Positions 4,079-61,462 of a DNA stretch of 64,000 nucleotides are shown here, piece after piece (position 1 is the stretch's first letter; each line of letters starts with the position of its first letter). Made by a program: the position numbers and the translations under genes. The notes under the pieces were generated by a model, which saw only the letters and a list, made by a program, of their open reading frames with translations, was not told the DNA's origin and ran no database searches. Source of the stretch: Chiloscyllium plagiosum (lineage: Eukaryota). The DNA lies in the NCBI RefSeq assembly GCF_004010195.1, contig NC_057760.1:426408-490407 (forward strand), read 5' to 3'.

Positions 4079-4731
4079 GTACGGGTCAGCTATTGGCGGT
4101 GCAGCATTTTTAAGGCCAGTTCCAAAGGGATATCCATGTCATTACAGCCAGCCTGTCCAGTGGATTGTTTTCCATCAGCTGGTGCGGCTCTCCCAGTCCC
4201 AGGTACGGGTCAGCTATTGGCGGTGCAGCATTTAAGGCCAGTTCCAAAGGGATATCCATGTCATTACAGAGGTGTCCACGAGCCACTTCCTCACTGTGGG
4301 GGAAATAGCGCCCCAAGAGGAGATGTGTGGGGGTGGGGGGGGTGGAGTCTCAAGTAGCGTCCAAAGGCAGACTGATGTCTAGTGGTGGTGGGCTAATAAT
4401 GGCCGAGACCCCAGGCTAAGGCCAGGGGAGGTCTTGTGATGTTATCGCTGGGCGTTTAATCTAGAGAGGGAACAGGAATCGCTGGAAAAGCTCAGCAGGT
4501 CTGGCGGCATCTGTGGAGAGAAATCGGATTCACATTTACAGGTCCAGTGACCCTTCCTCAGAACTGGTGGTTTTTATGCGGAACGTAGGGTGCGGGGAAG
4601 GGACTAAGGAGAACAAAGCGAGAGAACAGTTGGGAAAACAGAGGAGTGGATAACCATCGTCCTGGGAGAAGGAATAGCTCCGAACGGGGACCATTAGTTA
4701 TCCGTGTTATCACATTCGCCCCATGTCTAGT

Positions 4732-12250: not shown

Positions 12251-13625
12251 TGTGATTCGACATGGTCTGCTATTGCACATCCCATCAAAAAGCGACCTGG
12301 TGCCCTTTAAGGAGGGACACAGTTGTCCGTACTTGGAGGGGCCTACACGTGACTCCAGACCTACAGCCGGGTGCTCAACTCTTAACGCTTCACAGTTAAG
12401 GCACTGGCCCAGCCAATGAGGTGAGCAGATTAAAAATACTCGTCACGGGTTCAATTCCCGCCAGGGTACCTCCCAGTATAGGATTCAAATTCACCAAATG
12501 GATCCTAGAATTGGTCTCCGTGACAACCGTCATCGATAAAGCGAAAAAAAAAACACATTGAGGCGGTGCGGGGTCACTCATGGGAGAATGGCATCTGCCA
12601 TCCTCAACCCTCGGTCTGGGGAGGCCCACACGCGACTCCAGACCCCACACACAGAGACGGGCATCAGCAAAGCCCCCTAGGGGTCAAAGGGCAACAATGC
12701 CAGCGATGCCCCACCTCCTGAAAGAATTGAGCAAAATGCCGGGGACCTGTTTACTCGAACCCAACCACGATACCAGGGTGGCGGGACGGAGGGTGGGGTT
12801 GGGGATGTTTTGGGGGAGGGGGCCGTAAAAGGGGCCTAGTTTCGATAGTTCAGACTCTGGAGATGCTTGAGTCATCTCTGAGGGACAAGATGATTATTGC
12901 CTCGCAATCTGCCGGATTCACGAGGGAGAGTGGGTCGCCGGCGTCTTTATTGGCGGGAAACCAGCCCGGAACCAGGCACTAGAGCAATTCAACCCTTCAT
13001 CTTCTCCCCCTTCTCCCACAGTTTGTGGCCTTGAAGACCAAATTGTTCAGCACAGGCCCCGACGCCACTCGGAAGCAACCGTTAGTGAATAACTTTCGAA
13101 AAGCACAGCCCCTCAACGACAGAAAGATCAGAGCTTCCTTCTCATTGGGTGAGTGATGAAATGATCCAGTAGATTTCTGACCAGATCATTGGCTTGGGTT
13201 ACTGGGTAGCACCCTCCATTGGCAGGCTGTCACAAGTCTTCAAGTGCGAGGGCAGAGGGGGCATCAGTGATGAGGGACAGGTTCTGTCGGAGGGGGATTG
13301 TCCGTGCTAAATTGTCCCATAGTGCCCAGGGATGTGCAGGTTAGGGTGGATTGGCCATGCTCAATTGTCCCATAGTGCCCAGGGATGTGCAGGTTAGGGT
13401 GGATTGGCCATGCTAAATTGTCCCGTAGTGCCCAGGGATGTGCAGGTTAGGGTGGATTGGCCATGCTAAATTGTCCTGTAGTGCCCAGGGATGTGCAGGT
13501 TAGGGTGGATTGGCCGAACCGGGGTACCGTGGGGGGGGCGGGCGGGCAACGCTCTCTCTTATTCATGAGCCTCCTGCCTCTCAGCCCCTTGGTCAGGGAG
13601 TAGGGGGCGGGGGGTTAAGACTCAC

Positions 13626-13753
13626 CAGGCCAGACATCAGCGCGTGAGACACAACGACCACGGCCAGCAGCAGCCACCTCCTCTTCTCGCAGGCGTCAAA
13701 GAACACGACCCCCCAGGACGTGTGCAAGAGAACCACGGCCGAGGTCACGAAAG
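13626..13753 (-). CDS. APH1A: APH1A exon 5 (128 nt; AFVTSAVVLLHTSWGVVFFDACEKRRWLLLAVVVVSHALMSGL)
   Basis: cacag| acceptor and |gtgagt donor; contains the conserved LLHTxWGVVFFDAC motif and both conserved His residues. Confidence 0.95.
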
Positions 13754-14986
13754 CTGTGCAGAGACAGGAATCACCTGGGTGACAGAGCCTGCACACACAC
13801 GCATGCGTGTCAGAGAGCTCGTGCGCGGCAGTCACTTAAACCGACAAGAAGCGGATTCCCCTTCCATTCAACCTTCTTGGGGCTTAGCTTTAAGAGACCT
13901 GGAGACTGCAGCGCAAAAAACTTAGAACCTCTTCTCTTCTGTGATTCACTCTTGGAACGAGGAGGGTCAGCTCCATCCATCGCTCACTGTCCCCACAGGA
14001 CTGGGAAGAGGAGGCAGATGGAGTGCTGGCCGTTATGTCCAAGGGAATGGGGTTTTGCTAAAACTCGACAAGGCACGAGTTAGACCACAGCTGCAATTCT
14101 GTCGATAGCCTGGCACCCCCCCCCCCTCCACCCCAACCCTGTATCCAAGGAGAGCTAGACTGGGCCTTGGAGCCAGTCCAGAGAAGGCTCACTCAGCTGA
14201 CCCTGGGGATGGAGAGACTCCCTGTGAGGAGAGGTCGGGTAGGTTTGGGGCTTGTCTTTCTTGGAGTTTAGAAGAACAGGCTATCTGAGTGAAACACACA
14301 AGATTCTTCAGGGAATATTAACAGGGGAGGTGTGGGGAGATGGATTCCTCCCGTGTGGGAGAGTCAAGGACCACACAGGTCTGCAACACGGAAACAGGCC
14401 CTTTGGCCCAGTTTTCACAATTAATCTAGCCCTATTTGCCTCCAATTTGGTCCCTATCCCATCCACGTGCCTGAGTAAGGTGTTACTAAACTAACAAAAT
14501 TGTACTCACTTCCACCACGACCTCTGGCAGCCCGTCCCAGACACACCGCCCTCTGTGTGAGAAAACCTGCGCCTCTGCACCCTCTCCCCTCATAAAATCT
14601 ATGCCCTCTAGTCTTCGACTCCCCGACCCTGGGGAAAAGCTGTGGGCTTATCGCTGCCTCTCACAAACTTACAAACCTGTCAGGTCACCCCCTCAGTTTC
14701 CGACGCTACAGGGAGAACTAAATGTCCCAGTCTCTCCTTATGGCTCAAACCTTCCTGTCCACGTAGCATCCTTAATAATAGAGGGCGTCATCTCAGAATA
14801 TGGGGTCGCTGAAGACGGAGATAGGGAGGAATCTTTATCACTCCAAGGAGAGAGAGTGAGAGTGAGTGAGAGAGGTCGGGGCTGGCTCATTCAGCACACT
14901 CAAGACTAAGGTGGATCTTTAAAATCTGTGATCACATGACATTTGGTAACGATGCAAAGGCCTGGCCCCTCATTTCGCCAACTGAC

Positions 14987-15109
14987 CTGAGGTAAGGAAG
15001 AAGTAGGGAGAGTCTCCGTGAATGCCCACCGCGCCTGGCCCCAGCGAGTCCGACAGTACATTGATGACAGAGAAGGCACCACTGGCAACGCCGAAGGCTA
15101 GACCCGAAA
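14987..15109 (-). CDS. APH1A: APH1A exon 4 (123 nt; VSGLAFGVASGAFSVINVLSDSLGPGAVGIHGDSPYFFLTS)
   Basis: ctcacag| acceptor and |gtcagt donor; contains the GxxxGxxxG TM4 motif and GPGxVGIHGDS. Confidence 0.95.
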
Positions 15110-15747
15110 CTGTGAGGGAAGAGACAGGCAGCGTGAGGGGAGGAATCGAAAGGACGTTCAGCAAACTCTATTCTCCTCCCCAGACGGGTAACGGAGAAGA
15201 ATTGGCCGAACCTCGCCAGCTCGTTTTAAATTGGACGCAAAACGCTGCGGATATCAAAAACAAACAAATGCAGGAGGTCTGGACGTGTTTGGGGAGAGAC
15301 AGAGAGAGAGAGAGAAAGAGCGCGCAGGCGTGAGAGGGAGGGGGAAGAGGACGTGAGAGGGAAAGGGCACGGGCGCGAGAGAAAGGGCGCGACAGAGAGA
15401 GAGAAAGAGTGAGAGCGCGCGAGAAAGCGAGAGTGAGAGCAAGACAGGACTGGAGGAGCAGCTCCTCACCGTTCCCTTTCACTCCACTTCTGGCAGCGAG
15501 CACAATCAGATCGATCAGAAACTTGTGGCCAAGCACATACAAAGGGCCCAATGGCCTACTCCTAATTCATACATGCGTTTTGGGTTGGGGGAGGCGGGGG
15601 GGGTGAAGGTGATCGATTCTCTCAATAGCCCAGTGCATATTGAGCAATCGGTATCAAATTCGCGATTGGACGGGACAACGGTGCCAGGAAGGGGAAAGGT
15701 TTGCCCGACGGAACATCCACGTGGCGGGCTGAAGCCGGTTCTTTTAC

Positions 15748-15821: not shown

Positions 15822-17083
15822 CTGCGGGTGGGACAGAGATATACAAAGGTCACAGGGGTCGCTGGGTACCACAGCTGACACATAATCCCGCACGCGGTCA
15901 GTCGGGCTCTGGACAGGGAACAGGAAGACCATGAAACCCTTGGGATTCCTCCCAGCTGCACTCACCCAGTTATCCTTACCAATAACACGCCTTCTGAAAC
16001 AACACAGTCAGACAACATGGAAACAGACCCTTCGGTCCAACTCGTCCATGCTAAATGGACATCCTAAATTCAGCTTGTTTCATTTGGCCAGCATTTGGCC
16101 CGTACCCCAGTCCCGATGAAAGGTCCTGCCTGAAATGTTCTCTCTCCTGAATTTGTGATGCTGCTTCATCTGTTGTGCTTTTTCCAGCTCCATATTCTAT
16201 CGACTCTGACTTTCCACCATTTGCAATCCTCACGATCTCCATATCCCTCCAAACCCTTCCTGTTCATGTCCCCCATCCAGATGCCTTTTAAATGGTGTCA
16301 TTGTACCAGCCTCCACCACCTCCTCTGGCAGCTCGTTCCATACACGTACCACCCTTTGCGTGAAAAAGCTGGAGAAAGTCTTTTTCTGCAGGGTAGGGGA
16401 GCCCAAGTCTAGAGGGCACAGATTTAGCGTGAGAGGGGAAAGATTTGAAAGGGACCCAAGGGGCAACGTTTTTCACCCAGAGGGTGGTGCGTGTGTAGAA
16501 TGAACTGCCAGAGGAAGTGGTGGAGGTTGGTACAATTTAAAAGACATCGTGATGGAGACATGAATAGGAAGGGTTTAGAGGGATGTGGGCCAAGTGCTGG
16601 CAAATGGGATGAGATTAGGTTGGGATATCTGGTTGGCATGGTCGAGTTGGACCGAAGGGTTTTGTTTCCGTGCTGCACATCTCTATGACTCTATGTTGGC
16701 GGCAATATTGATCAGGACGACAGAGACACACACACAGACTCTGGATGGTCCTGGCTCCCCCAGTGGAAGTGCATTTGTGTTGTTCTGTAGCGCACAGAAA
16801 GACCATGGGTGTACATGGCGGACAGTAAAGTCAGTTGCACTGCGTGGGGGTGGGGGTGAAACAGAGGATATGCATTGGACAACAATAATGGAGGGGGAAA
16901 CCTGCATTTACATTCATCAGACCTCAACCCCAGCACCCTCAGCTCATCCTATCCTGCACAGACAGACACACAGACAGGCTCCCTCTATTCCCGATCTACA
17001 GGATCTTTCACACACGGTGACAGTGAAGTCAGCCCGGATGGTTTCCCAGGGAGCGACGTGTCCTCTCTGGCCAGCGAGCTTAC

Positions 17084-17254
17084 TTGAGCAGCTTGTAGTA
17101 TGCGAACCGAAAGGCCTCTTGAAGCAAGACGGAGATCCCGGCTCCCATCATCAGCAGGCCGTGCTGAAGCCCAGCGTTCTCCTTGTTGCTGAGCTGTACT
17201 GCCACAAACCACAGCAGCGAGGAGAGGAGCAGTGATACCAGCCAGAAGAACGAG
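17084..17254 (-). CDS. APH1A: APH1A exon 2 (171 nt; SFFWLVSLLLSSLLWF...VLLQEAFRFAYYKLLK)
   Basis: ccacag| acceptor and AA|gtaagc donor; APH1 TM2-TM3 similarity. Confidence 0.95.
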
Positions 17255-18743
17255 CTGTGGGAGAGGGTTAGAAAGCGGTCACCGTTAGTCCAACACACGG
17301 CCACAGAAAGCCGTGCACACTCGCTACGCCGAGAGCTCTCTCGAGTTAAGAGAATGCCGAATTCAAAATATGTTCGGACATGGTCCCTGCCCCGATCGGC
17401 GACCCACATTTTAAAAAGTGCAGGCGCTTCCCAATGGATTAGAAAGCAGCTCAGGGCAGATTGCAATTTGAACAGCATTGTCGGGGAGCTCTGATTGTAG
17501 TGCCCTCACACTCCGACAGTGCCTTTCTTAACCCCAGTGCCCCCCTCCCAAAGCGCCTGGAGGCCAAAGAGCTACTTCTGAAGGGCAATGCAGGAAATAC
17601 AGCAGCCCATTTGTGCAAAGCCAGATCCCACAAAGACGCAAACCACCTGCTGTCGCAGAGACGTTGGTCGAGGGGTAAATAGTGGTCCCTGGCGCACTGG
17701 GAGAAATGTCGCCCCCCCACTGTGTTTCCACTGGAGGCTCTGTGAGCTTTAACCTCCATGCAAGCATTGGCCTTGGTTTAAGATGTTGGTCACAAAAACA
17801 TCCCCCCCCCCCCGGGTAGCTGCCCGCCCCCGCACTGGGAGCATCAGCCCAGACACTCGATCAAAAAAAAATCAAACCCCATAACATTCTGACTCAAAGG
17901 GCTCATCCCTCACAGCGAGTCGGTAGGTGGAAACGTACGCCAAGAAAATAAAAATCCTCAGTATTTTTTAAAATTTACAATTATTATTGTATAATTCTTG
18001 AAAATGTGTGTCACGTATAGACAGGAGGGTTAAGGAGGCATATAGCAGGCATGCCTTCATTGCTCAGACCTTCGAGTACAGGAGTTGGGGTTGTACAGGA
18101 TGTTGGCGAGGCCTCGTCTGGAGTAGCGTGCACAGCTCTGGCCGTGCTATTATAGGGAGGGTATTATTAAACTGGAGAGGGTTCAGAAGAGATTTACCAA
18201 GATGTTGCAGGGAGTAGAGGGTTTGAACTACAAGGACAGGCTGCGACGTCTTTCACTGGTGCATTAGAGGGTGAGGGGTGACCTTATAGAGGTTTATAAA
18301 ATCACGACGGGCATGGATAAGATGAATGGTGAGTGTCGATTCCCTAGGGCAGGGGATTTCAAGACTGCGGGCACATTCGTAAAGTGAGAGGAGAGAGATT
18401 TAAAAAAAGACACAGGGGAAAATTATTTTTAAAAAAAAAACACAGAGGGTGGTTCATGTGTAGAATGACCTTCCTGAGGAAGTGGAGGATGTGGGTACAC
18501 TGACAACATTTAAAAGACATTTGGATAAGTACATGAATAGGAAAGGTTTGGAGGGATATGGGCCAGGTGCAGGCAGGTGGGACTGGTTTAGTTTGGGGAT
18601 TATGGTCACATGGACCTACTGAAACTGTGCTGTATGACCCGATGACATTGTCCTCCCTTCAAGGCCAAATATATTCTTCCTGAGATATGATGCCCAGATC
18701 TCCTTACCAAGTAACAAGTCAAACCAGGGTTTTATATACCTGC

Positions 18744-18855
18744 GAGGAGAAAGTGAGGACTGCAGATGCTGGAGGGCTTATGCCCGAAACGTCGATTCTC
18801 CTGTTCCCTGGATGCTGCCTGACCTGCTGCGCTTCTCCAGCAACACATTTTCAGC
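18744..18855. mobile_element. Short inverted Penelope-like pLTR fragment with a 14-bp TSD
   Basis: ttttatatacctgc at 18730-18743 and 18856-18869; partial hammerhead gggcttatgcccgaaacgtc. Confidence 0.75.
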
Positions 18856-20930
18856 TTTTATATACCTGCAGCAGAACTTCTGCGCCCTTATACTCCAATC
18901 CTCTAGATTAATAGGCCAGCCTTCCATTAGCCAGAAGGATTATTTTCTGCATCTGTCTGTGGCGTTTCTAAGATTTGTGCACCTGAGCTCCCAGGTCTCT
19001 TTGGGTACCCACTGTACTGAACTTCACACCATCTGGAGATTATCGGGGGGTTTTTTTCTGAATTTCTGATACGGAAGTGACGACACTATGCTTCGAACAC
19101 AGAGGTGCGCGCTATCCACTGTTGTTGCGCAGAAACCTTTCCAGAAAGGCAAAGAAGTGGTCGATTTGACGTTACTCTGGTTTCCATTTCTTGACCTTTA
19201 CCTCTATGTGGTCCGTACCCCTCTACTCCCGGCTTATTCATGTATCTGTCATGTCTCTGAAAAGTTGCCATTGTATCTGTCTCCCTCTGGCAGCGTATTC
19301 CATTCACTTACCACCCTCCATGTAGGACAACTTACCTCTCACATCTCCTTTAAACTTTCCCGCCTTTTACCTTAAATCTGTGTCTCCTACTCGTTGACGT
19401 TTTTACCCTGGGGGTTAAAAAAAAACACTGTCTGTCCATCCTATTCACGTCTGAACCACTGGATTACTCGTCCCTCGGCATTACCTCATCTTTCACTGCA
19501 CAAAAAACCGAGAAACAGCCTACAGCATCAGGCGCTACAGGCCCTGACAGTATTCAGACAATAATACTGAATAGGTTGGGACTATTTTGCCTGGAACGTC
19601 AGAAGCCAAGGGCTTATGCAGATGTTTATGAGGAACATGGATGGAGTGAACAGCCAAAGTCTTTTTCCCAGGGTAGGGGAGTCCAAAACTAGAGGGGCAC
19701 AGGGGTAAGGTGAGAGGGGAAAGATTTAAAAGGGACTTAAGGGACAGTTTTTTTTCCCCACGCAGAGGGTGGTGCGTGTATGGAATGAGCTGCCAGAAGA
19801 AGTGGTGGAGGCTGTTACAATGACAACATTTAAGAGGCATTTGGATGGGTATATGAATAGGAAGGGTTTGGAGGGATATGGGTCAGGTGCTGGCAGGTGG
19901 GACTAGATGGGGTTGGAATAGCTGGTCGGCATGGACGGGTTGGACCGAAGGGTCTGTTTCCGTGCTGTACGTCTCTATGACTCTATGGTTGGCATGAACG
20001 AGCTGGACCGAAGGGACTGTTTCTGTGGTGTATATCTCTGTTACTCGACTGATGACCAGTGTCCTAGACAAGTTGTCCCAGTGCAGCTACAATCCTGGCA
20101 TTTAATACTTGGATCAGCAGCTCAATATAAGCTGGTCTGAAAGTTATGGTATAGCCTGATCTCCTGATTTTGGAGCACTCGAATACCTGCCCTCAAATGC
20201 CCAGCTGCGTCCCCTCAGCTCCTCTGGTACACGGCAGCATCTCATCTTGTTAATAGGGTCCAATCCCAGCACATCAGACAAAGCCAAACAGCACAGAAAT
20301 GGAGACAACCAGTCCACACAGACCAGTTTAATGATATCCTCCCTCTAGCAGGGCGACCAGAACTGGATACTACACTGCAGAAGAAATCTCATACATCCAC
20401 AATATGACATCTCACCTGTCATACTCAAAAGGTCTGAGGAATAAAGGCAAGCTTGCTAAACGCCTTCCCAGCCACCATACAGTATGTGATGCAAACTTCA
20501 AAGAATTACATTCTAGATTTAGCTCGAAGCTGGGGTGGGGCAGGGGAGGGTCAAACAGAGTGCAAATGCATGACACAGCCATCACCTTACTGATGAGCAG
20601 CGAAGTCTCGATGGGCCAGATAGCTTATTTCTCATGTTCTTACCACAGAGCAATTGGCGAGGCCTTAACGCAAGGTAAACATGCCGCAGGTGAGGTGGCA
20701 AAGGTTGAGAAGGAAGGCACCTTCACAGCAGCCTCAGCCAACACAAGAGGCCGAGCCACTCTGCTGGCATTGCTCAGGCAAACAAACATTCAGACACTAG
20801 AGTGGAAATCGCTGACAGAAAAACCTCAGCAGGGCTGGCTGCAGCTGCAGGCAGAAATCACAGTCAATATTTCAGATCCAGTCACTCTTCCTCAGAACAA
20901 GTAATCAGGTGGGCCACAATCACACCGAAT

Positions 20931-21532: not shown

Positions 21533-21817
21533 AGGGATGTGCAGGCTAGGTGAGTTAGCCATGGAAAATGCATGGTTACGGGGGATGCTCTTTGGAGGGT
21601 CAGGGTAGACTCAATGGGCTTCCATACTTGGGAATTGTATGAATGTCCTCATCTTCTGTGGTCTTACAGGAGTAACCAACCCCCCGCCACAAAAAAAAAG
21701 ACATCATGACCCCACGGTACAGACGGTTTCAAAAATAAAGCAGGGAACGTAGCGGTTGTCTGTTCAGCCTACTGCAGTTGAAAAGCCCCTTGAGTACAAT
21801 TGACCAGGCTCATGGGA

Positions 21818-22038
21818 GGAGAAAGTGAGGACTGCAGATGCTGGAGATCAGAGCTGAAAATGTGTTGCTGGAAAAGCGCAGCAGGTCAGGCAGCATCCAA
21901 GGAGCAGGCGAATCGACGTTTCGGGCATGAGCCCTTCTTCAGCGGCTCATGAAGAAGGGCGCATGCCCGAAACTTAGATTCTCCTGCTCCCTGGATGCTG
22001 CCTGACCTGCTGCGCTTTTCCAGCAACACATTTTCAGC
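21818..22038. mobile_element. Fold-back Penelope-like mini-element with hammerhead motif and a 14-bp TSD
   Basis: 89-bp inverted arms at 21853-21941 and 21950-22038; TSD ccaggctcatggga at 21804-21817 and 22039-22052. Confidence 0.8.
21915..21942 (-). ncRNA. Minimal hammerhead ribozyme motif (CUGAAGA-A-GGGC-UCAU-GCCC-GAAA-C-GUC)
   Basis: Intact CUGANGA and GAAA boxes, 4-bp helix II, palindromic ACGT in place of helix III, GUC triplet. Confidence 0.65.
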
Positions 22039-22714
22039 CCAGGCTCATGGGACTAACCAATGCCCCATCACGGAGCAGAATCACCCCGATGTGGACGGGG
22101 ACAGGATCGTCTGGAGGCTGCTGTCCATGCGATTTTCCTGCACCTCGGATGCTGTGCTTTTCCAGCGCCACACTCCCGACCGCTGTCCGCACAGCCTACT
22201 ACAGTCGAACAGCCCGTGGGGCACAACCGCCCGGGCGTACTGGATCCAGGAAGGGCATCAGGGCACCGCAGAGCTGAGGGTCTCACAAGGTAAAGCACGG
22301 GGTGGCATTGAGACTGCTATCCATCCAGCCTCCTGCAGTCGAATAGCCCAGTCAGACGTGATCTGGTGGGGCAGATTATAAATACTAGGGTCGGTGCTGG
22401 GGTTCGGGGAAAGGTGGGTAACCACCTTTTAAAACAAAAAGGAGAGAAGAAAAAAAAAAGTGATGACAGAGGATTGGACAGAAATGTTTTTTTTTGTCGG
22501 CCAAACACATGCCCCGCCCCCCATCCACGGGCGACGTTCCCTTTAAATCCTGGGGCAACGGCTCGCGGTGACTTTAATGATTGACAGCGGCGGCGGATGC
22601 GGGCGGTGCCGGTGAAGCGGGAGTGCGGTCGGGCAGGTTTAGTTTTTAAATTTTATAAACGAACGGAGGGTTTTGTTTTCCTCCTTTTTTATTTTTTTTA
22701 AAAAGAAAACTCAC

Positions 22715-22827
22715 CCGGCGACCAGGATGATCACCCGCAGCGGCTCACCGGCCACGGTGAACAGCAGCAGCGCGAACGCCGGCCCGAAGGCGATGAAGGC
22801 GCAGCCGAAGAAGACCGCCGCGCTCAT
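22715..22827 (-). CDS. APH1A: APH1A exon 1 coding part, proximal copy (MSAAVFFGCAFIAFGPAFALLLFTVAGEPLRVIILVAG)
   Basis: gccATG at 22827 and GG|gtgagt donor; 113 nt. The seven exons sum to 798 nt, i.e. 265 aa plus stop. Confidence 0.93.
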
Positions 22828-23511
22828 GGCGGGGAGGAGGGGCGAGGCGACCGCCTCAGGCCTTAAACCCGGTTTAAAAGTCCCACCGCCATCGGCCAGC
22901 CCTCCTCCTGCATCCCCCGCCCTTTTCCGACACTCCCGAGGGGCCGCCGCTGAGGGGAGGTCGCAGGCCCAACGGCCTGTCGCGGCGGGGGCACGCCGCG
23001 GCCAATCGGCGTCGGGCCAGGGGGTGGGGCCGCGGGGGGGGTTTGACGGGCGGTACGGCCAATCGGCTGTCGTGGCTGGGCGGGCGAAATGCTGATCGAC
23101 GGGCGGCTCGGCCATTCGGATTTATGTCCCCGACGGCCGGGCCGGTCGACGTCATGGGGAGGCGGGCCGCAGGGTGATCGACGGGTCGCCCCTCCAGTAG
23201 GAGTTTGACAGCCCGTCCGCATCGAGGACAGGCGGGTCGGGAGTTGATTGACGGAAGACTCGGCCAGTCGGATGTCGACAGCCGTTTTCTGCGTAGCCAG
23301 GGCGAGAATTGATTGACGTGCCAGTCGGATGTTGACGCTTCTTGACCGACTTGCCACACTACGTCGAGGGTTTGGTGGCTGATTGACAGGCCGCTCCACC
23401 AATTGGATATCACCACTCCCTTGAAGGCCTGACCACCTGATTGACAGGCCGCTCGACCACTGGGATGTCTGTATTCCAGTTGGTTTGCCCATCGGTGGGG
23501 CGGATGAAGAG

Positions 23512-23660
23512 GTAAAAACAATGACTGCAGATGCTGGAAACCAGATTCTGGATTAGTGGTGCTGGAAGAGCACAGCAATTCAGGCAGCATTCGAGGACAG
23601 GCAAAATTGACGTTTTGGGCAAAAGCCCTTCATCAGGAATAAAGGCAGAGAGCCTGAAGC
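23512..23660. mobile_element. Penelope-like terminal fragment between the two APH1A exon-1 copies
   Basis: Starts gtaaaaacaatgactgcagatgctgg, the same terminus as the copy at 53386-53474. A degenerate hammerhead lies on - at about 23609-23636. Confidence 0.75.
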
Positions 23661-23814
23661 GCTCGCGGTGACTTTAATGATTGACAGCGGCGGCGGATGC
23701 GGGCGGTGCCGGTGAAGCGGGAGTGCGGTCGGGCAGGTTTAGTTTTTAAATTTTATAAACGAACGGAGGGTTTTGTTTTCCTCCTTTTTTATTTTTTTTA
23801 AAAAGAAAACTCAC

Positions 23815-23927
23815 CCGGCGACCAGGATGATCACCCGCAGCGGCTCACCGGCCACGGTGAACAGCAGCAGCGCGAACGCCGGCCCGAAGGCGATGAAGGC
23901 GCAGCCGAAGAAGACCGCCGCGCTCAT
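23815..23927 (-). CDS. APH1A: APH1A exon 1 coding part, distal identical duplicate
   Basis: Exact copy of 22715-22827, offset by 1100 nt, with an intact ATG and donor. Confidence 0.8.
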
Positions 23928-25639
23928 GGCGGGGAGGAGGGGCGAGGCGACCGCCTCAGGCCTTAAACCCGGTTTAAAAGTCCCACCGCCATCGGCCAGC
24001 CCTCCTCCTGCATCCCCCGCCCTTTTCCGACACTCCCGAGGGGCCGCCGCTGAGGGGAGGTCGCAGGCCCAACGGCCTGTCGCGGCGGGGGCACGCCGCG
24101 GCCAATCGGCGTCGGGCCAGGGGGTGGGGCCGCGGGGGGGGTTTGACGGGCGGTACGGCCAATCGGCTGTCGTGGCCGGGCGGGCGAAATGCTGATCGAC
24201 GGGCGGCTCGGCCATTCGGATTTATGTCCCCGACGGCCGGGCCGGTCGACGTCATGGGGAGGCGGGCCGTAGGGTGATCGACGGGTCGCCCCTCCAGTAG
24301 GAGTTTGACAGCCCGTCCGCATCGAGGATAGGCGGGTCGGGAGCTGATTGACGGAAGACTCGGCCAGTCGGATGTCGACAGCCGTTTTTTGCGTAGTCGG
24401 GGCGAGAACTGATTGACGTGCCAGTCGGATGTTGACGCTTCTTGACCGCCTTTCCACACTACGTCGAGGGTTTGGTGGCTGATTGACTGGCCGCTCCACC
24501 AATTGGATATCACCACTCCCTTGAAGGCCTGACCACCTGATTGACAGGCCGCTCGACCAGTGGGATGTCTGTATTCCAGTTGGTTTGCCCATCCGTGGGG
24601 CGGATGAAGAGTCTGCTCATCCAATCGGATGCTGGTATTCTGAACGGCCTCAGCAGTCGGCAGGGGTGGACGGATGATTGACAGTCGCCAATCGAGCTTG
24701 GGATAAGGTCCGGGTAATGGGCGTGGATTACTCGTGTGACTGACAGGCGAACTGTCCAATACGGTGGCGGTGTGTCTTTTGGAACCATTCGGCGTTAAGG
24801 TCAGGGTGATTGATGTTTCCATTGACGAGTCAGATGTCGTCTCTGATGGATTAAGCAATCAACGACTCGGATAGGCGTGTGTGGGAAGGAATGACGTTAA
24901 TTTCGTCCAATCGGATGCCGACAGTTTTGACGCCTTATTCAATCGACACGGAGGGAAGGACGGCCAGGTGGCGATTTGTGTGATTGACGTCGTGTTTGGG
25001 CAGGTGGGCGTGGTCTCATGCTGACCGACATGCGAGATAACCAATGAAATGCTGGAACCCTCTCGACGAATCGCATTCTGGGCAAATGGGTGGAAAGCAG
25101 TTCAGTTCGTCGGTTACTGCGCGTGCGCACGGCGCGCAAGGCAACATGGGAGTTGTAGTCTTCCCTGTCTCTTGCTGCAGAGTCAAAAGAGAAAGCTAAA
25201 TGCTGAAACTCTTGAAATAAAAACAGAAGTTGCTGGTCACTGTTGTCGAGTAGAAAGCGGCCACTCAGCCCATTGGGTTTGCATTTGTTCTCCTGCATGA
25301 GCATTATGATTTAGTGCCAATCTCCTGGCCTGCAAACCTATACATTGTCTCAATTGAAATAACTTTCTTGTTGCTTTCTTTATTGTCTCAATTGAAATTG
25401 CCTTTAATTGCACCATATTCCTTTCAACTCAGCTCAACCACTGGCTGAGTTAAATTTTGTTTACTGCTATGCTTGTGCAACACGCCTTAAAACTGTGCTC
25501 TCTGGTTCTTGATTGATAAGAGCTGTTAAGAATAGAGAGTGGTGCTGGAAAAGCACAGCAGGTCAGGCAGCATCTAAGGAGCAGGAGAATCGACTGGCTG
25601 ATTCCTGGTGAAGCCCATTCCTGATGTAGGGCTTTTGCC

Positions 25640-26725
25640 TATCTTATACGTTGCAGGCAGGGATGCCCGGAGGCATGGTGCATTGGGGAAACCGAGCAAA
25701 GGCTACGACAACGGATGAATGGGCACCGCACAACGATCAACAGACAGGAGGGTGCCCTCCCAGTTGGGGAACACTTCAGTGGTCCAGGACATTCAGCCTC
25801 GGACCTTCGGGTGACCATCCTCCAAGGGGGACTTCGGGACAGGCAGCAGAGGAAAGTGGCCGAGCAGAGGCTGATAGCTAAGTTCGGTACCCATAGGGAG
25901 GGCCTCAACCGGGACCTTGGGTTCATGTCACATTACAGGTGATCACCATTGCACTACACACACACACACACACACTCCTACACACACTCCTACACACACT
26001 CCTACACACACTCTCACATACACACGGACATAGATACACACAGATGTGCACACAGACACCCACACACACCCTTATAGACACACAGACTCCCACACATGCA
26101 CCCCCTCACAGACTTAAGACACTCTGCACTCACTATACACACACACACACTTTCTCACTCACAACCCCCACCCCAGACAGACACACACACACAGACAGAC
26201 AGATAAAGACCCACATGCACACATATTTTGTGTGGTGAATTTTTTTGGTGCTTTCAGAGTTACATTGCACTTTGCTCAAAAACCACATACATTCATGTAG
26301 AACTCTGAGCTCAAAAACTGCATGAATTTATGTAAAATTCTGTCATCTCACTTTTTAGCTTGGAATCAATCTAAACATCAGGTCATAGACAGAGAACACA
26401 GGGGGCTAACACCTTCAACACATTGTCTAGCTATCACCGTTGTTAACAGCTAACCCGAGAATGCAACTTTAAAAAAAAGGGTTTTGTGATTTACACATGA
26501 AAGAAGTGAAACTATCACTGTATTCTAACAGATGAAAGACTTCACAGACAATCAGTTCTTCAATGTATAATTTCAGTTACATCACACTGCAAATTTTTGC
26601 TATAAATTCTGTGTTACGATCGAGCCCTCCACAATCACATGATGAAGGAGTGTCGCTCCGAAAGCTAGTGTGCTTCCAATTAAACCTGTTGGAATATAAC
26701 CTGGTGTTGTGTGATTTTTAACTTT
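25640..26725 (+). mobile_element. 5'-truncated Penelope-like element: GIY-YIG endonuclease C-terminus plus 3'UTR/pLTR
   Basis: YLIRC...WCIGETEQRLRQRMNGHR...VGEHF...EQRLIAKFGT..GLNRD* (stop at 25940-25942). CA-rich UTR; hammerhead-like tgatgaaggagtgtcgctccgaaagcta at about 26640. Confidence 0.88.
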
Positions 26726-27298
26726 GTGCACTTTTAATAGACAGTCTTGCTTCACTCGAGTAAATATCAAGCCAAATCTGTTCTCTGGAGGCTGTATATT
26801 TCAGAGGTTGTGGAAACATACAAGATTCTTTAAGGGACTTGATCTGAAGAAATGTTTCCCCACTCCATGCAGGACCAGAAAGCATAATCACCGAGTAAAA
26901 GGCTCACCATTCAAGGCAGATTTAATATTGTGTATCTGTGGAATTTTTTACCACAGAGGCTGGGTCACCAGGTATATTCATGGCAGAGATAGACAAATTT
27001 TCAATTATGAGGGAGATAAAGGTTATGGGGGAAAAGCAGGAGAGTTGGATTCAGGATTATCAAATCAGTCATAATCTTGCTAAATGGTACAGCATTATGA
27101 GGGGCTAAATGGCCGCCTTCTGCTCCTATCCCTTATGGTAAATATTTCCTTGTCTTTTCCCTCTGCTTCTTTGACCAGTATTCTTGGACTCCCAAACCTC
27201 CCAGCACACATTCGTGGGAGGAACCCAGCCATCCTCTTCTGCTCTGGGTCACCACATGACTCCCACTCCCAGATCAATGCCTGTTGACACTAGTGCTG

Positions 27299-33789: not shown

Positions 33790-33840
33790 TGATTTCTTGC
33801 TCGTCTTTATTAATATGTCATGGGCGAGTGCTCGGAAAGC
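33790..33840 (-). CDS. RAB13: RAB13 penultimate exon (51 nt; AFRALAHDILIKTSKKS)
   Basis: ttttccaacag| acceptor and |gtaagt donor; matches the AF..LA.DIL.K helix alpha5. Confidence 0.88.
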
Positions 33841-34061: not shown

Positions 34062-34283
34062 GGAGGCTGAAGTGGATACTTGCATATACTGGAGATCAGG
34101 GTCAAGGTGAGAGTGGCGCTGGAAAAGCACAGCAGGTCAAGCGGCATCCGAGGAGCAGGAAAATCGACGTTTCGGGCAAAAGCCCTTCTATCAGGAATGC
34201 CCTTTAGCCCCAAACGTCTACTTTTTCCCTGCTCCTCGGATGCCGCCTGACCTGCTGTGCTTTTCCAGCACCACTCTCATCTT
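34062..34283. mobile_element. Fold-back Penelope-like mini-element inserted in an older SINE
   Basis: Inverted arms; degenerate hammerhead; imperfect TSD gactgttaatccag / gactgtgaatctag. Confidence 0.65.
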
Positions 34284-35963
34284 GACTGTGAATCTAGAGA
34301 CCCGGGTAACATTCTGGGGACCTGGGTCACACCAAGCGGAATTTGAATTCATTTGTTAAAAAGGTGTGGAATTCAGAGTCTAACGATAAGCATTGTTGGA
34401 AAAAAAAACCCCATCCAATGTCCTTGAGGGAAGGAATCTGCCATCTCTTACCTGGTCTGGGCCTACACGTGACTCCAGACCCACAGCAATGTGGTTGAGT
34501 CGTAACTCCCTCTAAGCAATCAGGGATGGGCGATAAATGGTGGCTGGGGATCCCATGAACGAATAACAAAACTGGATTTCAACTAACAGCAGCATAACAC
34601 ATGACCAAATTTATTTTGCTTTATGTTAATTAACCAAAGCAAGACCTTGGTCTCAGGAGAGAACAGAGCCCAATCCTCCCTTTGTTATACTTTGACATCT
34701 GCCTGAACAGACACCTTTTTTGTTGGATTTGATTTATTATTGTCACATGCACCTACGTACGGTTTTGCATGTAGATTAGATTAGATTAGGTTCCCTACAG
34801 TGCGGAAACAGGCCCTTCGGCCCAACCAGTCCACACTGACCCTCCGAAGAGTAACCCACCCAGACCCATTTCCCTCTGACTAACGCTATGGACAATTTAG
34901 CATGGCCAATTCACCCTAACCTGCTCATAGAGTCATAAAGATGTACAGCATGGAAACAGACCCTTCGGTCCAACCCGTCCATGCCGACCAGATATCCAAA
35001 TCCAATCTAGTCCCACCTGCCAGCACCCGGCTCATATCCCTCCAAACCCTTCCTATTCATATACACATCCAAATGTCTCTTAAATGGTGCAATTGTACCA
35101 GCCTCCACCACTTCCTCTGGCAGCTCATCCCATTCACGTACCACCCTCTGTGTGAAAAAGTAGTCCCTTAGGTCTCTTTTATATCTTTTCCCTCTCACCC
35201 TAGACCTATGCCCTCTAGTTACATCTTTGGACTGTGGGAGGAAACCCACACAGACGCGGAGAGAATGTACAAATGCCACACAGACAGTTGCCCGAGGCTG
35301 GAATCGAACCTGGGACCCTGGTGCTGTGAGGCAGCAGTGCTAACCACTGAGCCACCATGCCACATAGTAAACAGATCAGACCATACAGAACAGAGCAAGG
35401 AATACAATGTCACGGCATGCAGAGAAGGTGCACAGAGAGCGAGATCAACATTAAAATTCAAATTTGAGTGGTCTATTCAGCACTAGGAAGAAGCTGCTCT
35501 CGAACCTGTTCATAAGGGTATACAAACTTCTATGTCTGCCTGACGGAAGAGGTTGGGATAAAGTCTAAACCAGGGTGGGGGAGGTCTTGGATTGCTCTAC
35601 CAAGGCAGCTGGAAGCAGAGATGGAGTCAACTTATGAAAGGCTGGTTTGTGTGAGTGTGGCGCTGGGAAAGCACAGCCGGTCAGGCAGCATCCGAGGAGC
35701 AGGAGCGTCGACATTTCAAGCGTAAGCTCTTTGTCAGCTCACGCTTCAAAGGTTGACCCCACCCCCCCCTGACTCGCCACACTTTTTGACTCGCACCTCC
35801 AGCGCCTGCAGTCCTCACTCTCTCCTAGATTGTGAGACGGACTGGGCTGCGTTCACGACTCGCCGTGGTAACCTGCGGACCTGGGCAGTGGGGTCAGGCA
35901 AAAATCAAGTTGGACAGAGGCCCTCCTCCCTTCCTGGTGAAACGGCGGAACCGGGAATCTTAC

Positions 35964-36029
35964 CTCTTCCACGTTCAAACTAGACTTGGCGCTCGTTTCA
36001 AAGAATCGGATCCCATGATCCTTTGCCAA
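35964..36029 (-). CDS. RAB13: RAB13 exon (66 nt; [22 protein letters not shown]), G5 box
   Basis: ctgcag| acceptor and |gtaaga donor; ETSAK G5 motif; [13 protein letters not shown] is RAB13-like. Upstream exons are not found in the window. Confidence 0.9.
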
Positions 36030-36222: not shown

Positions 36223-36722
36223 NNNNNNNNNNNNNNNNNNNNNNNNNNNNNNNNNNNNNNNNNNNNNNNNNNNNNNNNNNNNNNNNNNNNNNNNNNNNNN
36301 NNNNNNNNNNNNNNNNNNNNNNNNNNNNNNNNNNNNNNNNNNNNNNNNNNNNNNNNNNNNNNNNNNNNNNNNNNNNNNNNNNNNNNNNNNNNNNNNNNNN
36401 NNNNNNNNNNNNNNNNNNNNNNNNNNNNNNNNNNNNNNNNNNNNNNNNNNNNNNNNNNNNNNNNNNNNNNNNNNNNNNNNNNNNNNNNNNNNNNNNNNNN
36501 NNNNNNNNNNNNNNNNNNNNNNNNNNNNNNNNNNNNNNNNNNNNNNNNNNNNNNNNNNNNNNNNNNNNNNNNNNNNNNNNNNNNNNNNNNNNNNNNNNNN
36601 NNNNNNNNNNNNNNNNNNNNNNNNNNNNNNNNNNNNNNNNNNNNNNNNNNNNNNNNNNNNNNNNNNNNNNNNNNNNNNNNNNNNNNNNNNNNNNNNNNNN
36701 NNNNNNNNNNNNNNNNNNNNNN
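36223..36722. other. Assembly gap, exactly 500 N
   Basis: Counted N run; the round size is typical of a scaffolding join of unknown length. Confidence 0.95.
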
Positions 36723-39700
36723 CCTGTGCTGACACATGATGCCTGTCTACACTGAAAGCCTTTTGCCTCCATGTGGCCCCCATCCCTCTGTTCCCTCCCT
36801 GTTCATGTCTCTATTCACCTCTGACACACTTTACCACCCTTTCAACTCCTTTAAATGTCCCCCTTTTGCCTTCATGTCCCCCAGTAATTGACATTTCTAC
36901 CCCTACCTCTTGTAATTTTGTAAATATCTGTCAGGCTCCCCCTCCGTCTCTGACGTTCAAATGGAAACAAACAGAGTCATACAGCTCAGAAACAGACCCT
37001 ACGGCCCAACCAGTCCAGGCCGACCATAATCCCAACCTAAACTAGCCCCACCTGCCTGCTCCTGGCCCACGTTCCTCCAAACCTTTCCTGTTCATGCCTT
37101 TTAAATGTTATAACTGCACCTACATCCCCATCACTTCCTCTGGGTGCCCTTCCCACTTGGGAACCACTCCGTGTAAAAATGCATTCTTAAAATTGTTCTC
37201 CTCTCGCCCTGAAAATATCACCCCTAATCCTGAGATCATCCGAGTAAAAACCACACCTGCCATTCACCTCTTCTGTGTCCCTCATGATCTTATACGGCTT
37301 GATAAGGTCACCCCTCAGCCTCCTCCGCTCCAGTGAGAAAGTTTGCAGCACCCGCCCCCCCCCCACCTTATAACTCAAACCCTCCACTCCCAGCAACATC
37401 CTGTTCAATCTCTCCTCACAGCTAATACTCTCCAAAATCAGGCAACAAACATCCTGACAAACCTTTTCTGTGCCCTCTCCACATCCTCCTGCTAGTGTGA
37501 TCACAGCTGTAGGCAAGATCCCAAATTGTGGAATATTGAAATTCACAATATCAAATGGCCTGAAGTTCTGTACAGCAGCAACATGACGTGCCAATTTTTA
37601 TACTCTGTGCCCTGACCAATGATGGCAAGTATGCGATAAGCAGCCTTGATCACCTTATGTTGCCACTTCAGGGAGCTGTGGACCCACATGCCTGTATCCC
37701 TCTTATGTCAATGCTTCTCAGGGATCTGCCATTTACGTATACTTCTCTCCTGCATTAGACCTTCCAAACTGTATCACCTCACATTTGTCCGTATTAAATT
37801 CCATCAGCCATCTCTCCGTCCAAAGTCCCCAGCCTACCTATAATCCTCGGACGATTCTCCTTATTATCTGCAGGTCCCCTAATCTTTGTGTCGTCTATGA
37901 ATTTACTAATCAGATCATCTACGTTCTCCTCCAAATCATTTATATAATTTTACAAGGGGGCCAGCACTGGACCCTGGGAAACACCACTGGTCATATCTCC
38001 AGTCAGGAAAAAAAACCCTTACCATTGCTACACTATCAGCTATGACTAAGCCAGTTCTGTCTCCCTCTTATGAGCTCACTGTGGATGTCCTCTTTTATCT
38101 ACCAGCCTGCCATGAGGGACATATCAATGGCCCTTGCTTTCCTTATCACTGACGTCAGGCTCACTGGCCTGTAATTTCCTGGATTGTTCTCAATAAACAA
38201 GAGAACACCACTGGCCATTCTCCATTCCTCTGGGCCCTCTTCTGGGACCAAACAGGATACATTATTCAGTTACAATATGGGATGATTAAAGGGTATGGGG
38301 AGAGAGTGGGGCAATGAGATATGTTTGGGGATTGTTTCGTGGGCAATGGCTATCCATTCCCAAACTAATCCCACTGTCCCCCTCTCTCCCCATAGCCCTG
38401 CGTCAATCTCCAAACCAATCCCACTGCCCTGCTGTCTCCCCATAGCCCTGTGAGCTACACACTGGCACTACCTTCCATAGCAATCCCCAAACTAATCCCA
38501 CTGCCCCGTTGTGTGTCAATCCCCAAACTAATCCCACTGCCCTGCTCTCTCCCCATAGCCCTGCATCGATTCCCGAACTAATCCCACTGCCCCCCCCTCT
38601 CCCCATAGTCCTGCGTCAATCTCCAAACTAATGCCACAGTCATTCCCCCTAGCTGTGAATGTGGACAGGGGTAGTGCCAGTGTGTACTGAGCTTTCTCAT
38701 GGTACTTTAGCCTTCTGGGTGTGCTATGCAGCAGTTTCAGAGCTGGCGTGGCATTGGTAGCTGGTGTTCTAACAAAAAAAAACCCCACCGTTCAAAAATA
38801 CCTGTGAGTCTTGAGATAAATTAGCCAGTGAGGGGAACATGCCAACCGCACGCATTATTTAAATGAAACATCTTGTACCAAAGGCTGAGAAAGATTGTAT
38901 TTCCTGGGGCCACTGTTAAGTAAAGACATCTTCTCTGAGCCCACGAATGAAGGCAGGAGATGGGGCTGTTTTAAATCGTGAGGGGCATGGGTAGGGTTAA
39001 TAGCCTGGGATAGGAGAGTCCAAAACTAGAGGGACATCGGTTTAAGATGAGAGGGGAAAGATCTAAAAGACACCCGAGAGGCAACTTTTTCACACAGAGG
39101 GTGGTGCGTGTATGGAATGAGCTGCCAGAGGAAGTGGTGGAGGCTGATACAATGACAGCATTTAAAAGGCACCTGGATGGGTATATGAATAGGAAGGGTT
39201 TAGAGGGATATGGGCCAAGTGCTGGCAAACGGGACTGGAATAATTTAGCATATCTGGTCAGCACGAATGAGTTGGACAGAAGGGTCTGTCCCCTGCTGTA
39301 CATCTCTCTGACTAAACTGAAGACCCTCACCCTGGCTCCCGTTCTGTGAAATTCCCCCCTGCACCTTCTCTATGGATCTCAACACCTTCCCTATGATGTC
39401 CAGAACTGGAAACAACACCCAGCCCAAGGGATTCAGCAAGGTTGAGTTTGGCACATTTCCTCTTGTACGCTCTGCCTCAAATAAAAGTGAGGATCCTGTC
39501 TGCTTTTTATTTAAAATATAAAATATTCCCACAAGAGCTCTGCAGTAAAAAATTCCAGATTCAATCCCCTTGGAGAGAAGGAGTTCCTCCCCATCTCTGT
39601 CTTCAATGGGGTAACCCTTACTGCTTGATGATACGCCCGGGTCCTAGACTTTACCCTCCCCCCCCCACCAATCCACATGGGAAACAACATCTCCACATGT

Positions 39701-44212: not shown

Positions 44213-44867
44213 AAGTCACCTGAATAGCAGCCAAAGCACCAAGCAACAGTGATGTAGTCCAGCTAGACTTCGATTGAGGAGGGAAGACTTTGAGGAAGAG
44301 GATTATAGTTGGAAGTATCCACCTTCTCACAGCATGAACCAAACCACACAGGGAAGAGGGATGTTTTACCAACTCTGTACTCCGGTGTCCTTATTAATTA
44401 AAGCAAGCCAATGGTGTCTGTGTTCCCCTCTCCCACCCATTGCTTTGCCACTATCCTTCCTGGTCTGCACCCACTGCCAAAGCTCTTGACATTCAAAGCC
44501 AAGCACCTGGTCAGGTCCTGAAAATTTTTTTTTTAAAAAAGCAGCTACGATATTTTTATACTTCAGGTCTTAAATATAAAAGAGAAGGTATTTATTTGAA
44601 ACTGTATGTAAAAATGAATTAAATTAGACCCATCCTCTGCAGGTAAGACATCAGGATTTTAAATGTGCACAATTTACTCATGGGCCAATCAACTGGATGT
44701 GTCCTCAGGAGAATAAAAATTGGTGTAATGATTTGTTTTTGTTTAAAAAATATAGTTTACAGGAGAGGACCAATCTCTGGTATTTGTTGCAATGTGTTCT
44801 AACAGGCTTTGAGTTTAATAAAGCATATCTGCTCTAGAGTGAATGTTCTTTCATTTCAGCTTATCTT

Positions 44868-45035
44868 TGGAAGCACTAGCTTTCAGAGCGCTGCTCCTTC
44901 ATCGTCCCTAGTTACCTGATGAAGGAGCAGTGCTCTGAAAGCTAGTGCTTCCAAATCGACCTGTTGGACTATAACCTGGTATTGTGTGATTTTCAACTTT
45001 GTCCATCCCAGTCCAACACCGGCTCCTCCACATCA
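44868..45035. mobile_element. Penelope-like pLTR fragment with an inverted pair of hammerhead motifs
   Basis: CTGATGA-aggagcagtgctct-GAAA-GCTA at 44916-44944, with its inverted copy at 44869-44903. Confidence 0.75.
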
Positions 45036-46183: not shown

Positions 46184-46795
46184 CTGCAGACAGGCAGGAG
46201 GCTGGAAGAACACAGCAAGCCAGGCAGCATCAGGAGGTGAAGTCAATATTTCCCCTTCAGGACTGGGGCTGGGGATGAGGGGAGATGCAGATAAAGGGGG
46301 TGGAGGTGTGAGGGAGGGTTTGGGTTAGGAAAGGGGGGTAGGTGAACACAGGTAGAGGGCACAGCCTGGTTGCTCGGTGGGAGGAATGAATCAGGTTGGG
46401 AGCTGGAAGGGAGGGTTGGTCAGGGGAATGGAAGGGAGGGGGAGGGGCTGTTAGAAATAAGTCGGGGGATGGGAAGGGCGGTTATTTGAAACCGGATAAC
46501 TCAACGTTGAGTCCTGCAGGCCGTAGGCTGCCCAGGCTGAAGATGAGGTGTTGTTCCTCCAATTTGTGGTCTGATTTGCTGCGGTAGTGCAGGAGACTGA
46601 GGACAGTCATGTCAGAAAGGGAGTGGGAAGGGGAATTAAAATGGGTGCCCCTCTCCCTACCCCAAGCCCTTCTTCCCAGCCCTAAAGAAGGGTTACACTC
46701 CAAATGTCGACCTCTCCACCACCTGATGCTGCCCGGCTCACTGTGTTCTTCCAGCCTCCTGCTTGTCTACCTCGGATTCCAGAACCTGCAGATTT
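46184..46795 (-). mobile_element. Penelope-like fragment (second family) with GIY-YIG C-terminus and inverted ends
   Basis: ORF 46482-46703 reads HFNSPSHSLSDM..KLEEQHLIFSLGSL.PAGLN.E. Inverted terminal arms at about 46184-46240 and 46715-46770. Confidence 0.8.
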
Positions 46796-53385: not shown

Positions 53386-53474
53386 AGCTCCTCGGATGCT
53401 GCCTGAACTGCTGTGCTCTTCCAGCACCATTGATCCAGAATCTGGTTTCCAGCATCTGCAGTCATTGTTTTTAC
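53386..53474. mobile_element. Penelope-like terminal fragment with a 12-bp TSD
   Basis: catgtagcctga at 53374-53385 and 53475-53486. Confidence 0.75.
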
Positions 53475-58236: not shown

Positions 58237-58265
58237 TTAGTGCTGCTTTCTTCTGAAGGAACAGC
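58237..58265 (-). CDS. RPS27: RPS27 exon 4 (GCSFRRKQH*)
   Basis: ccttctgcag| acceptor; TAA at 58237-58239; AATAAA (-) at 57994-57999. Confidence 0.95.
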
Positions 58266-60653: not shown

Positions 60654-60764
60654 CTTCTGTTAGCCTGGCCTTTCCACCAGTGGGCTGGCAAAGTACAGTG
60701 GAGCATCCGACACATAGCACGACAGTCTGCGCGTGGCTGAACACTGTAGTGATTTTATAGCAAC
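60654..60764 (-). CDS. RPS27: RPS27 exon 3 ([37 protein letters not shown])
   Basis: tttcttag| acceptor and |gtgagt donor; 111 nt; zinc-finger cysteines. Confidence 0.97.
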
Positions 60765-61353: not shown

Positions 61354-61462
61354 CAGGACATTTGACATCCATGAAGTAAGAGTTGGGGCTTTGCACCAAA
61401 CGTTTCTTCTTGTGTTTCCTCTTCTCCTCCTCGGGAGAGGGATGTAGCAGATCTTTCGCCAA
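61354..61462 (-). CDS. RPS27: RPS27 exon 2 ([36 protein letters not shown])
   Basis: ctgcag| acceptor and |gtgcgt donor; 109 nt. The K/P/R residues match RPS27 rather than RPS27L. Exon 1 is not confidently located. Confidence 0.97.

Follow-up and report, generated by a model that had tools for sequence, protein, structure and literature searches.

Complex insertions have been described for Penelope-like elements (PLEs) that encode an endonuclease. In these insertions, an inverted 5'-truncated copy is located at the 5' end, and a tail of 30-40 bp is present at one end (PMC8557442). Rotifer PLEs with the same structure are flanked by 8-10-bp duplications and carry palindromes at their inverted junctions, which were read as signs of self-priming (PMC3846280). 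A PLE protein was shown to cut both target strands and to extend them, with synthesis starting at two RNA sites, one on either side of the tail (PMC11167929). PLE insertions with a median length of 128 bp, due to truncation, have been reported (PMC9977147), and the origin of tandem and inverted PLE structures was still described as undefined (PMC8557442).

Hammerhead motifs of PLEs occur as opposite-strand pairs about 100-700 bp apart, and lone motifs come from truncated elements; these ribozymes did not cleave as monomers and cleaved to a low extent as dimers (PMC4209133). The hammerhead of the Poseidon element cleaved only when the protein was present and was not needed for insertion (PMC11167929). 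The animal non-LTR retrozymes, which are short, non-coding, hammerhead-bearing and pLTR-derived, were reported in the one cartilaginous fish sampled (bioRxiv 10.64898/2026.07.22.740005).

The DNA studied here (the window) is a stretch of 64,000 nucleotides from the shark Chiloscyllium plagiosum. Its inserts behave as endonuclease-positive PLE insertions, and two of their families, B and C, are members of this group. With the complex insertions of such elements (Arkhipova et al. 2013, PMC3846280; Craig et al. 2021, PMC8557442) they share a head-to-head copy, a one-end tail and a target-site duplication (TSD), as well as junction microhomology or palindromes, a pLTR hammerhead and, in longer copies, GIY-YIG remnants. 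Unlike in those elements, both parts are shorter than 140 nt here, so that the whole insert forms one hairpin; the TSDs are 12-18 bp long versus 8-10 bp in the rotifer examples (PMC3846280), and the density is very high. As in the minimal type I hammerheads of PLEs (Cervera and de la Pena 2014, PMC4209133), the cores combine CUGANGA, an extra base before G10.1, helix II and GAAA, and the palindromic 4-nt helix III and short helix I are likewise shared (PMC4209133; Lunse et al. as cited in PMC6765202). In contrast to the pairs described in PMC4209133, the excerpted text of which does not name cartilaginous fishes, opposite-strand cores lie 3-14 nt apart here and are predicted to bury each other.

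The two starts of reverse transcription that bracket the tail of Anolis Poseidon in vitro (Frangieh et al. 2024, PMC11167929) fit the two 3' ends found here, although the host is different, the clade is probably different, and no inverted products are described in the excerpts of that source. The inserts are also similar to the retrozymes (bioRxiv 10.64898/2026.07.22.740005) in being short, non-coding, hammerhead-bearing and pLTR-derived; however, retrozymes are head-to-tail tandems with a complete ribozyme in each unit, whereas the copies in the window are single or head-to-head, and their ribozymes are mostly broken. Among the entries of the literature search, no paper dealt with these inserts in sharks or described twin priming for PLEs, and the retrozyme supplements may include shark families.

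In LINE-1, 5' inversions arise by twin priming, in which two primings at one site give a head-to-head junction and a TSD, and these inversions are not known to duplicate sequence. The insert at 18744 resembles such an inversion. Unlike LINE-1 inversions, the inserts at 21818, 34062, 62453 and 44868 duplicate sequence, and there is no poly(A) tail.

Families of inserts and evidence for their origin

The coordinates of the inserts and of the neighboring exons are collected in Table 1. A BLAST comparison within the window, which is repeat-rich and 41% self-similar, revealed 16 family-A arms at 10 loci, 4 family-B copies and 2 further related families. The first-pass annotation had proposed a family of inserts at six sites, most of them formed of inverted arms and flanked by repeats of 12-18 bp. 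Several PLE families were found instead, and the insert at 44868, which had no BLAST match to the other five sites, was assigned to family B. Four of the six inserts (21818, 34062, 44868 and 62453) were indeed self-complementary, whereas the arms at 18744 did not overlap and 53386 was a plain truncated copy without a core. The flanking repeats held at four sites as well: the TSDs at 21818, 18744, 53386 and 62453 were each matched by none of 147-150 random flank pairings, but the repeat at 34062 (10/11) was not above chance (4/148 random flank pairings), and no TSD was found at 44868 (36/149 random flank pairings).

Table 1. Positions of inserts, their parts and nearby exons in the window
Feature	Positions	Strand	Remarks
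Focal fold-back insert, family A	21818-22038		221 nt; APH1A intron 1
Left TSD of focal insert, 14 bp	21804-21817		perfect repeat with right copy
Right TSD of focal insert, 14 bp	22039-22052		perfect repeat with left copy
Focal long arm, putative family-A PLE 3' end, C3 of CUGANGA to tail end	21818-21942	-	
Tail within focal long arm	about 21818-21852		
Focal minimal hammerhead core	21915-21942	-	5' strand of helix I lost; boxes and helix II retained
Focal junction filler	21943-21949		unique
Focal short inverted arm	21950-22038	+	ends at tail-less 3' end
Family-A inverted copy, 31-nt tail arm and 83-nt tail-less arm, non-overlapping	18744-18855		APH1A intron 1; no CUGANGA box; perfect 14-bp TSD (18730-18743/18856-18869)
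Family-A linear copy	23512-23660	-	G12 lost; between 951-bp direct repeats
Further family-A inverted composites	58545-58690 and 25529-25639		
Long family-B copy, C-terminal PLE endonuclease remnant, then hammerhead-bearing end	25640-26730	+	
Family-A fold-back, older copy	34062-34290		CUGANGA box with one extra base
Family-A inverted composite	35650-35826	-	
Family-B fold-back copy	44866-45034	+	core 44916-44944(+)
Family-C copy with endonuclease C-terminus (46485-46643) and inverted short arm	46188-46800	-	
Family-A plain 5'-truncated copy, no inversion, no core	53386-53474	+	perfect 12-bp TSD (53374-53385/53475-53486)
Related-family fold-back	56982-57165		
Family-A fold-back copy	62453-62643	+	18-bp TSD with one mismatch, 17/18 (62435-62452/62644-62661)
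APH1A exon 1	22827-22715	-	
Further APH1A exons	within 17083-17283, 14973-15167, 13596-13835		
Rab-type exons	35964-36029, 33790-33840		weak Pfam Ras match for the first
RPS27 exons	within 61271-61489 and 60598-60789, near 58263		

The 89-bp inverted arms noted earlier at 21818 were confirmed. Segments 21853-21941 and 21950-22038 are 89 nt each and 94% complementary (5 mismatches) and lie between perfect 14-bp repeats; the fold had z = -19.4, and none of 200 shuffles was equally stable. The core in the short arm is broken, with C3 absent and a mismatch in helix III. At the junction, 21944-21951 is an 8-nt repeat of the focal TSD, and its reverse complement is 8 nt of the helix II of the element; this filler repeat was likely templated. 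The target site 21804-21817 has 8 nt in common with the element's helix II and the junction filler.

Evidence on the origin came from the longer copies. Reading frame 46485-46643 gave 69 protein matches at E<=0.001, some of which were unrelated immunoglobulin-repeat proteins. Among 8 matched proteins that were scanned, four had GIY-YIG matches, which were sub-threshold, and one (P0070) had both RT and GIY-YIG; the window peptide itself had no Pfam match. The same proteins picked out a second endonuclease remnant at 25640-25939 (E=6e-15), which forms the start of the 1.1-kb family-B copy, the end of which matches 44914-45005 at 84%. In families B and C, the remnants are located upstream of the hammerhead-bearing ends. 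Of the named homologues found for a peptide derived from a repeat, five of six came from skates and rays, in keeping with a cartilaginous fish as the host. Pfam was run on 263 non-repeat reading frames (233 on the minus strand and 30 of 144 on the plus strand). Because the endonuclease remnants match proteins with PLE-type RT and GIY-YIG, there is direct evidence, at the level of sequence, that families B and C are PLEs.

For family A, no attached ORF was found within the 64-kb window. A PLE RT remnant was found nowhere in the window. Viral contigs and metagenome contigs, scanned for exact patterns, gave 0 matches each. Families A and C have in common a segment of 30-38 nt at about 80-90%. Since the parent ORF was not seen, the PLE origin of family A can only be inferred, from its core, its tail and this segment. 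The Penelope origin put forward in the annotation was thus supported directly for families B and C and is probable for family A, which is linked to them indirectly through family C. MITE-like DNA transposons with terminal inverted repeats would likewise be short, hairpin-shaped and flanked by TSDs, but the arms are asymmetric with a tail at one end, the TSDs measure 12 to 18 bp, the 5' truncation varies, and relatives carry PLE endonuclease remnants, so that the probability of this explanation was considered negligible.

Several other repeats in the window are arranged in a related manner. At 25529-26730, a family-A piece with a fragmented and multiply inverted 5' end lies head to head with the 1.1-kb family-B copy; the proposal that 25529-26732 is one chimeric family-A/family-B insertion was unsupported, as there was no TSD. 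The copies at 4480-4561, 20820-20898, 56982-57165 and 58336-58425 form a fourth family with hammerheads, in which helix II is longer; its cores are all decayed, and its copies also appear to start just upstream of CUGANGA. Inverted arrangements were also seen in other repeat families, with 68-nt arms at 16300/16469 (16239-16640) and several 39-51-nt arms near 38300-38600 (38284-38637).

Hammerhead cores and their predicted burial

A minimal-hammerhead descriptor applied to the window found exactly three cores (21942-, 44916+ and 62520+), compared with a mean of 0.015 and a maximum of 1 in 200 dinucleotide shuffles. All three combine CUGANGA-N-helix II-GAAA with a palindromic helix III and an NUH triplet. 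They were the only ones to pass among 19 core-like sites listed, as expected for decaying copies. Helix II is paired with different letters across family A, family B and the 4560/58336 family.

These are the same three cores that the annotation had called intact; however, this word is too strong, since each has a defect. In the 21942 core, the helix I 5' strand is lost and a G stands opposite a G beside the cleavage site (standard hammerhead numbering). The 44916 core carries G10.1-U11.1 in place of the G-C seen in two linear relatives, and the helix II of the 62520 core is reduced to 3 bp. In the latter two, helix I is also short, with 3 bp left at 44916 and 2 bp at 62520. An Rfam search gave no hammerhead match at E<=5, the only matches being sub-threshold and mostly to miRNA hairpins. 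The fold-back point lies beside CUGANGA at 21818, 62453 and 44868, as had been observed before, and also at 34062.

At most one core per insert passed the descriptor. The predicted cost of freeing the core was 29.5, 28.9 and 40.0 kcal/mol in the whole insert and 3.6, 3.5 and 8.2 kcal/mol without the antisense arm. In fold-back copies, pairing with this arm is predicted to bury the hammerhead and to leave the ribozyme inactive. The antisense arm is made before the focal core in the APH1A pre-mRNA; considering this order together with the burial energies, it may be concluded that the fold-back likely silences the ribozyme. The active hammerhead fold was not obtained in predicted minimum-energy homodimers, and no pile-up of read ends was found at the cleavage site in fragmented poly(A) reads, which are a weak test.

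The focal core is sense in the APH1A pre-mRNA and is the only one of the three on a pre-mRNA strand; the others are antisense to nearby genes, that at 62520-62547(+) to RPS27. As one core of three is sense, and as this core would be blocked by its hairpin according to the prediction, the suggestion that the inserts place self-cleaving motifs in pre-mRNAs is unsupported. The hammerhead appears to be a passenger derived from the pLTR.

Junctions, arm ends and formation of the inserts

All ten inverted junctions in the window differ in sequence and show microhomology or short filler; at 44868, the filler consists of 10 nt of unrelated bases. The focal junction was also examined in public data aligned on 21600-22125 at 82% likeness. 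From run X21, of which ~2% was examined, 3,597 of 12,955,460 RNA reads were drawn, and 102,761 (X1) and 87,484 (X5) DNA contig records were obtained, numbers that do not represent copy numbers. The RNA depth was 1,104 at 21929 and 3 at 21944, fifteen bases apart, and the summed contig depth in X1, also not a copy number, fell from 4.6 million to 2,212 at the junction. Past 21942, 563 reads continued into other sequence (consensus begins GAATGAGG, agreement 0.48), and the agreement of the loose-end consensus there was low, 0.37-0.48. Many reads and contigs stopped at the end of the focal tail arm, 21816-21819. The DNA contigs gave 279 joint rows, and the best 15 of 279 were scattered over both arms with 1-5 contigs each; the contigs are short, and junctions very near the focal one may score as mismatches. 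A moderately amplified junction family could therefore still exist elsewhere. Among the contigs of X1 and X5, none of which spans the stretch, no empty site was observed.

Considering that ten of ten junctions are unique, that the RNA depth is 3 versus 1,104 and that 279 different joints were recorded, it was concluded that the hairpin is not mobilised as a unit. An internal junction common to several loci, as in a SINE- or MITE-like unit, was not found. A non-autonomous ribozyme-hairpin element that is transcribed and mobilised whole, the bolder of the two readings offered in the annotation, would agree with the density (16 family-A arms in 64 kb), the similar size of the copies, their long TSDs and the position of the junctions in the same region. 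It is nevertheless very hard to reconcile with unique junctions that are nearly absent among family reads and contigs, with at least three unrelated or distant families of the same shape, and with a hairpin predicted to block the ribozyme, and it was regarded as highly improbable. The other reading offered there, inverted truncation products, is supported by the unique junctions, the PLE tail and the two-end pattern described below.

Arm positions were counted from C3 of CUGANGA. Family-A arms have two recurring 3' ends, at about +125 and at +85 to +94, ~35 nt apart. In four of six family-A composites with a tail arm (end at ~+125), the other arm ends at +85 to +94; the exceptions are 62453, the second arm of which extends to +65, and 58545, which is poorly aligned beyond +75. 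The features of PLE insertions, namely a tail of ~35 nt at one end, an inverted 5'-truncated copy and a TSD, were thus all found. The arms of 18744 span +97..+125 and about +5..+90; because each arm holds sequence absent from the other, this insert requires priming to have occurred twice.

It is therefore considered highly probable that the inserts are separately formed 5'-truncated PLE 3' ends with junctions of their own, most likely two cDNAs joined head to head. The GIY-YIG domain would nick both target strands 12-18 nt apart, and one nick would prime at the tail end, whereas the other would in most cases use the tail-less start. Synthesis of both cDNAs would end prematurely, in many cases close to the 5' edge of the hammerhead box, and end-joining would seal them head to head. 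Overlapping arms would give a fold-back, as at 21818 and 34062, and non-overlapping arms a simple inversion, as at 18744. In a minority of cases, such as 62453, a cDNA may fold back on a natural micro-hairpin. These steps are proposed because the structures and the cited PLE biochemistry fit them.

The last route, extended to the fold-backs in general, would mean that a nascent strand mainly primes itself, with a small palindrome at the edge of the hammerhead allowing it to fold and then copy itself. The junction of 62453 falls on a natural TCA-TTCC-TGA micro-hairpin and is the exact product expected from this hairpin, which was predicted by folding; moreover, the two arms of 62453 have a variant in common, and the short arm ends off the tail-less site. 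However, self-priming cannot make 18744 or 35650, in which the second arm carries sequence absent from the first, and it does not predict the fixed tail-less end of the short arms. Furthermore, the arms of 21818 differ at 21900/21991, where both letters are common in the family, which weakly suggests two templates. As the main route, self-priming was thus judged improbable.

The 5' ends of the arms were clustered. Nine of the 16 family-A arms end within -6..+10 of C3, versus 1.1 expected at a constant truncation rate, and by locus 6 of the 7 that reach +10 stop in this interval (P about 1e-4), which was chosen after seeing the data, with ends partly adjusted by eye and paired arms not independent. 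Random truncation does not explain this cluster, which is distinct from the cleavage site (+28/+29). A transcript start, a protein block or local micro-palindromes could each explain it.

The first of these options corresponds to a different template, in which the source of family A is a short non-autonomous RNA, or else a capped transcript of the pLTR, with its start ~5 nt upstream of CUGANGA. Both cDNAs would then run off one 5' end, and the fold-backs would therefore lie beside CUGANGA. Besides the clustering by locus, this possibility is consistent with the two arms ending within ~15 nt of each other at 21818, 34062, 62453 and 44868, with the low agreement of the loose-end consensus and with the lack of a family-A ORF in the window. 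However, the copy at 23512-23660 extends ~20 nt further upstream of the box, family B folds back at the same place although its copies extend into the ORF, and the aligned reads and contigs reveal no place where many molecules begin, the joints shown being spread over both arms. A short template is compatible with two priming events, since only the template changes, and it was considered rather unlikely.

Gene context and biological meaning

The genes of the window are on the minus strand. The hairpins had been placed in the pre-mRNAs of APH1A, RAB13 and probably RPS27. This held for APH1A, with 18744 and 21818 both in intron 1, and 34062 is located between two Rab-type exons of a putative RAB13; for RPS27 it is probable, as 62453 lies upstream of exon 2 and would be in intron 1, exon 1 not being securely located. 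The flanks of 44868 and 53386 yielded no exons. A motif and exon-size search did not find upstream Rab exons; those with the GTP-binding motifs may be in the 500-N gap 36223-36722 or may be missing (36030-58200). In the APH1A span, a minus-strand reading frame at 16715-16948 weakly matches carbonic anhydrase (E=1e-4, not reaching the Pfam cut-off) and may be a stray or degraded exon.

The 149-bp copy 23512-23660 lies exactly between direct repeats of 951 bp, 22561-23511 and 23661-24611, through which APH1A exon 1 is present twice, together with its CpG island. The repeats have 13 differences, all in the last 440 bp and none in the first 515 bp. They look like a very long TSD, and an assembly error could also account for them. 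Duplications with a median of 900 bp were described for a Dualen LINE, which is not a PLE (PMC9977147).

It was also considered whether the host has adopted the hairpins in introns of APH1A, Rab and RPS27 as signals for editing, small RNAs or cleavage. An 89-bp intronic duplex is a plausible ADAR substrate, and A>G and T>C changes were listed at 14 places each in the RNA run, versus 8 and 3 in one DNA run and 7 and 3 in the other. At 8 of 11 displayed sites, the strand pattern of these changes agrees with editing (p=0.23; library direction assumed), and control substitutions had strand differences of the same size. Against co-option, the reads concerned represent the whole family, the RNA depth over the unique flanks was 0 (in ~2% of run X21), and the cores are decayed and mostly antisense to genes. 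Such a role was therefore rated as very unlikely, and the system is most likely ordinary retroelement debris composed of dead-end copies.

A bolder reading, put forward tentatively and with considerable doubt, is that the template of the most abundant PLE family here is an RNA that either begins at the 5' edge of the hammerhead box or blocks RT there, and that the enzyme may also make kilobase target duplications. If this were true, the fold-backs would record both RT start sites and the stop and would provide a genome-scale readout of PLE inverted insertion. The hammerhead region would then set the boundary of the insert without cleaving there, and kilobase target duplications would copy promoters and first exons, as with APH1A. 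The abundant short copies offer material for separating the two-start route from self-priming by counting arm ends, and the intronic hairpins may be a source of dsRNA in these animals.
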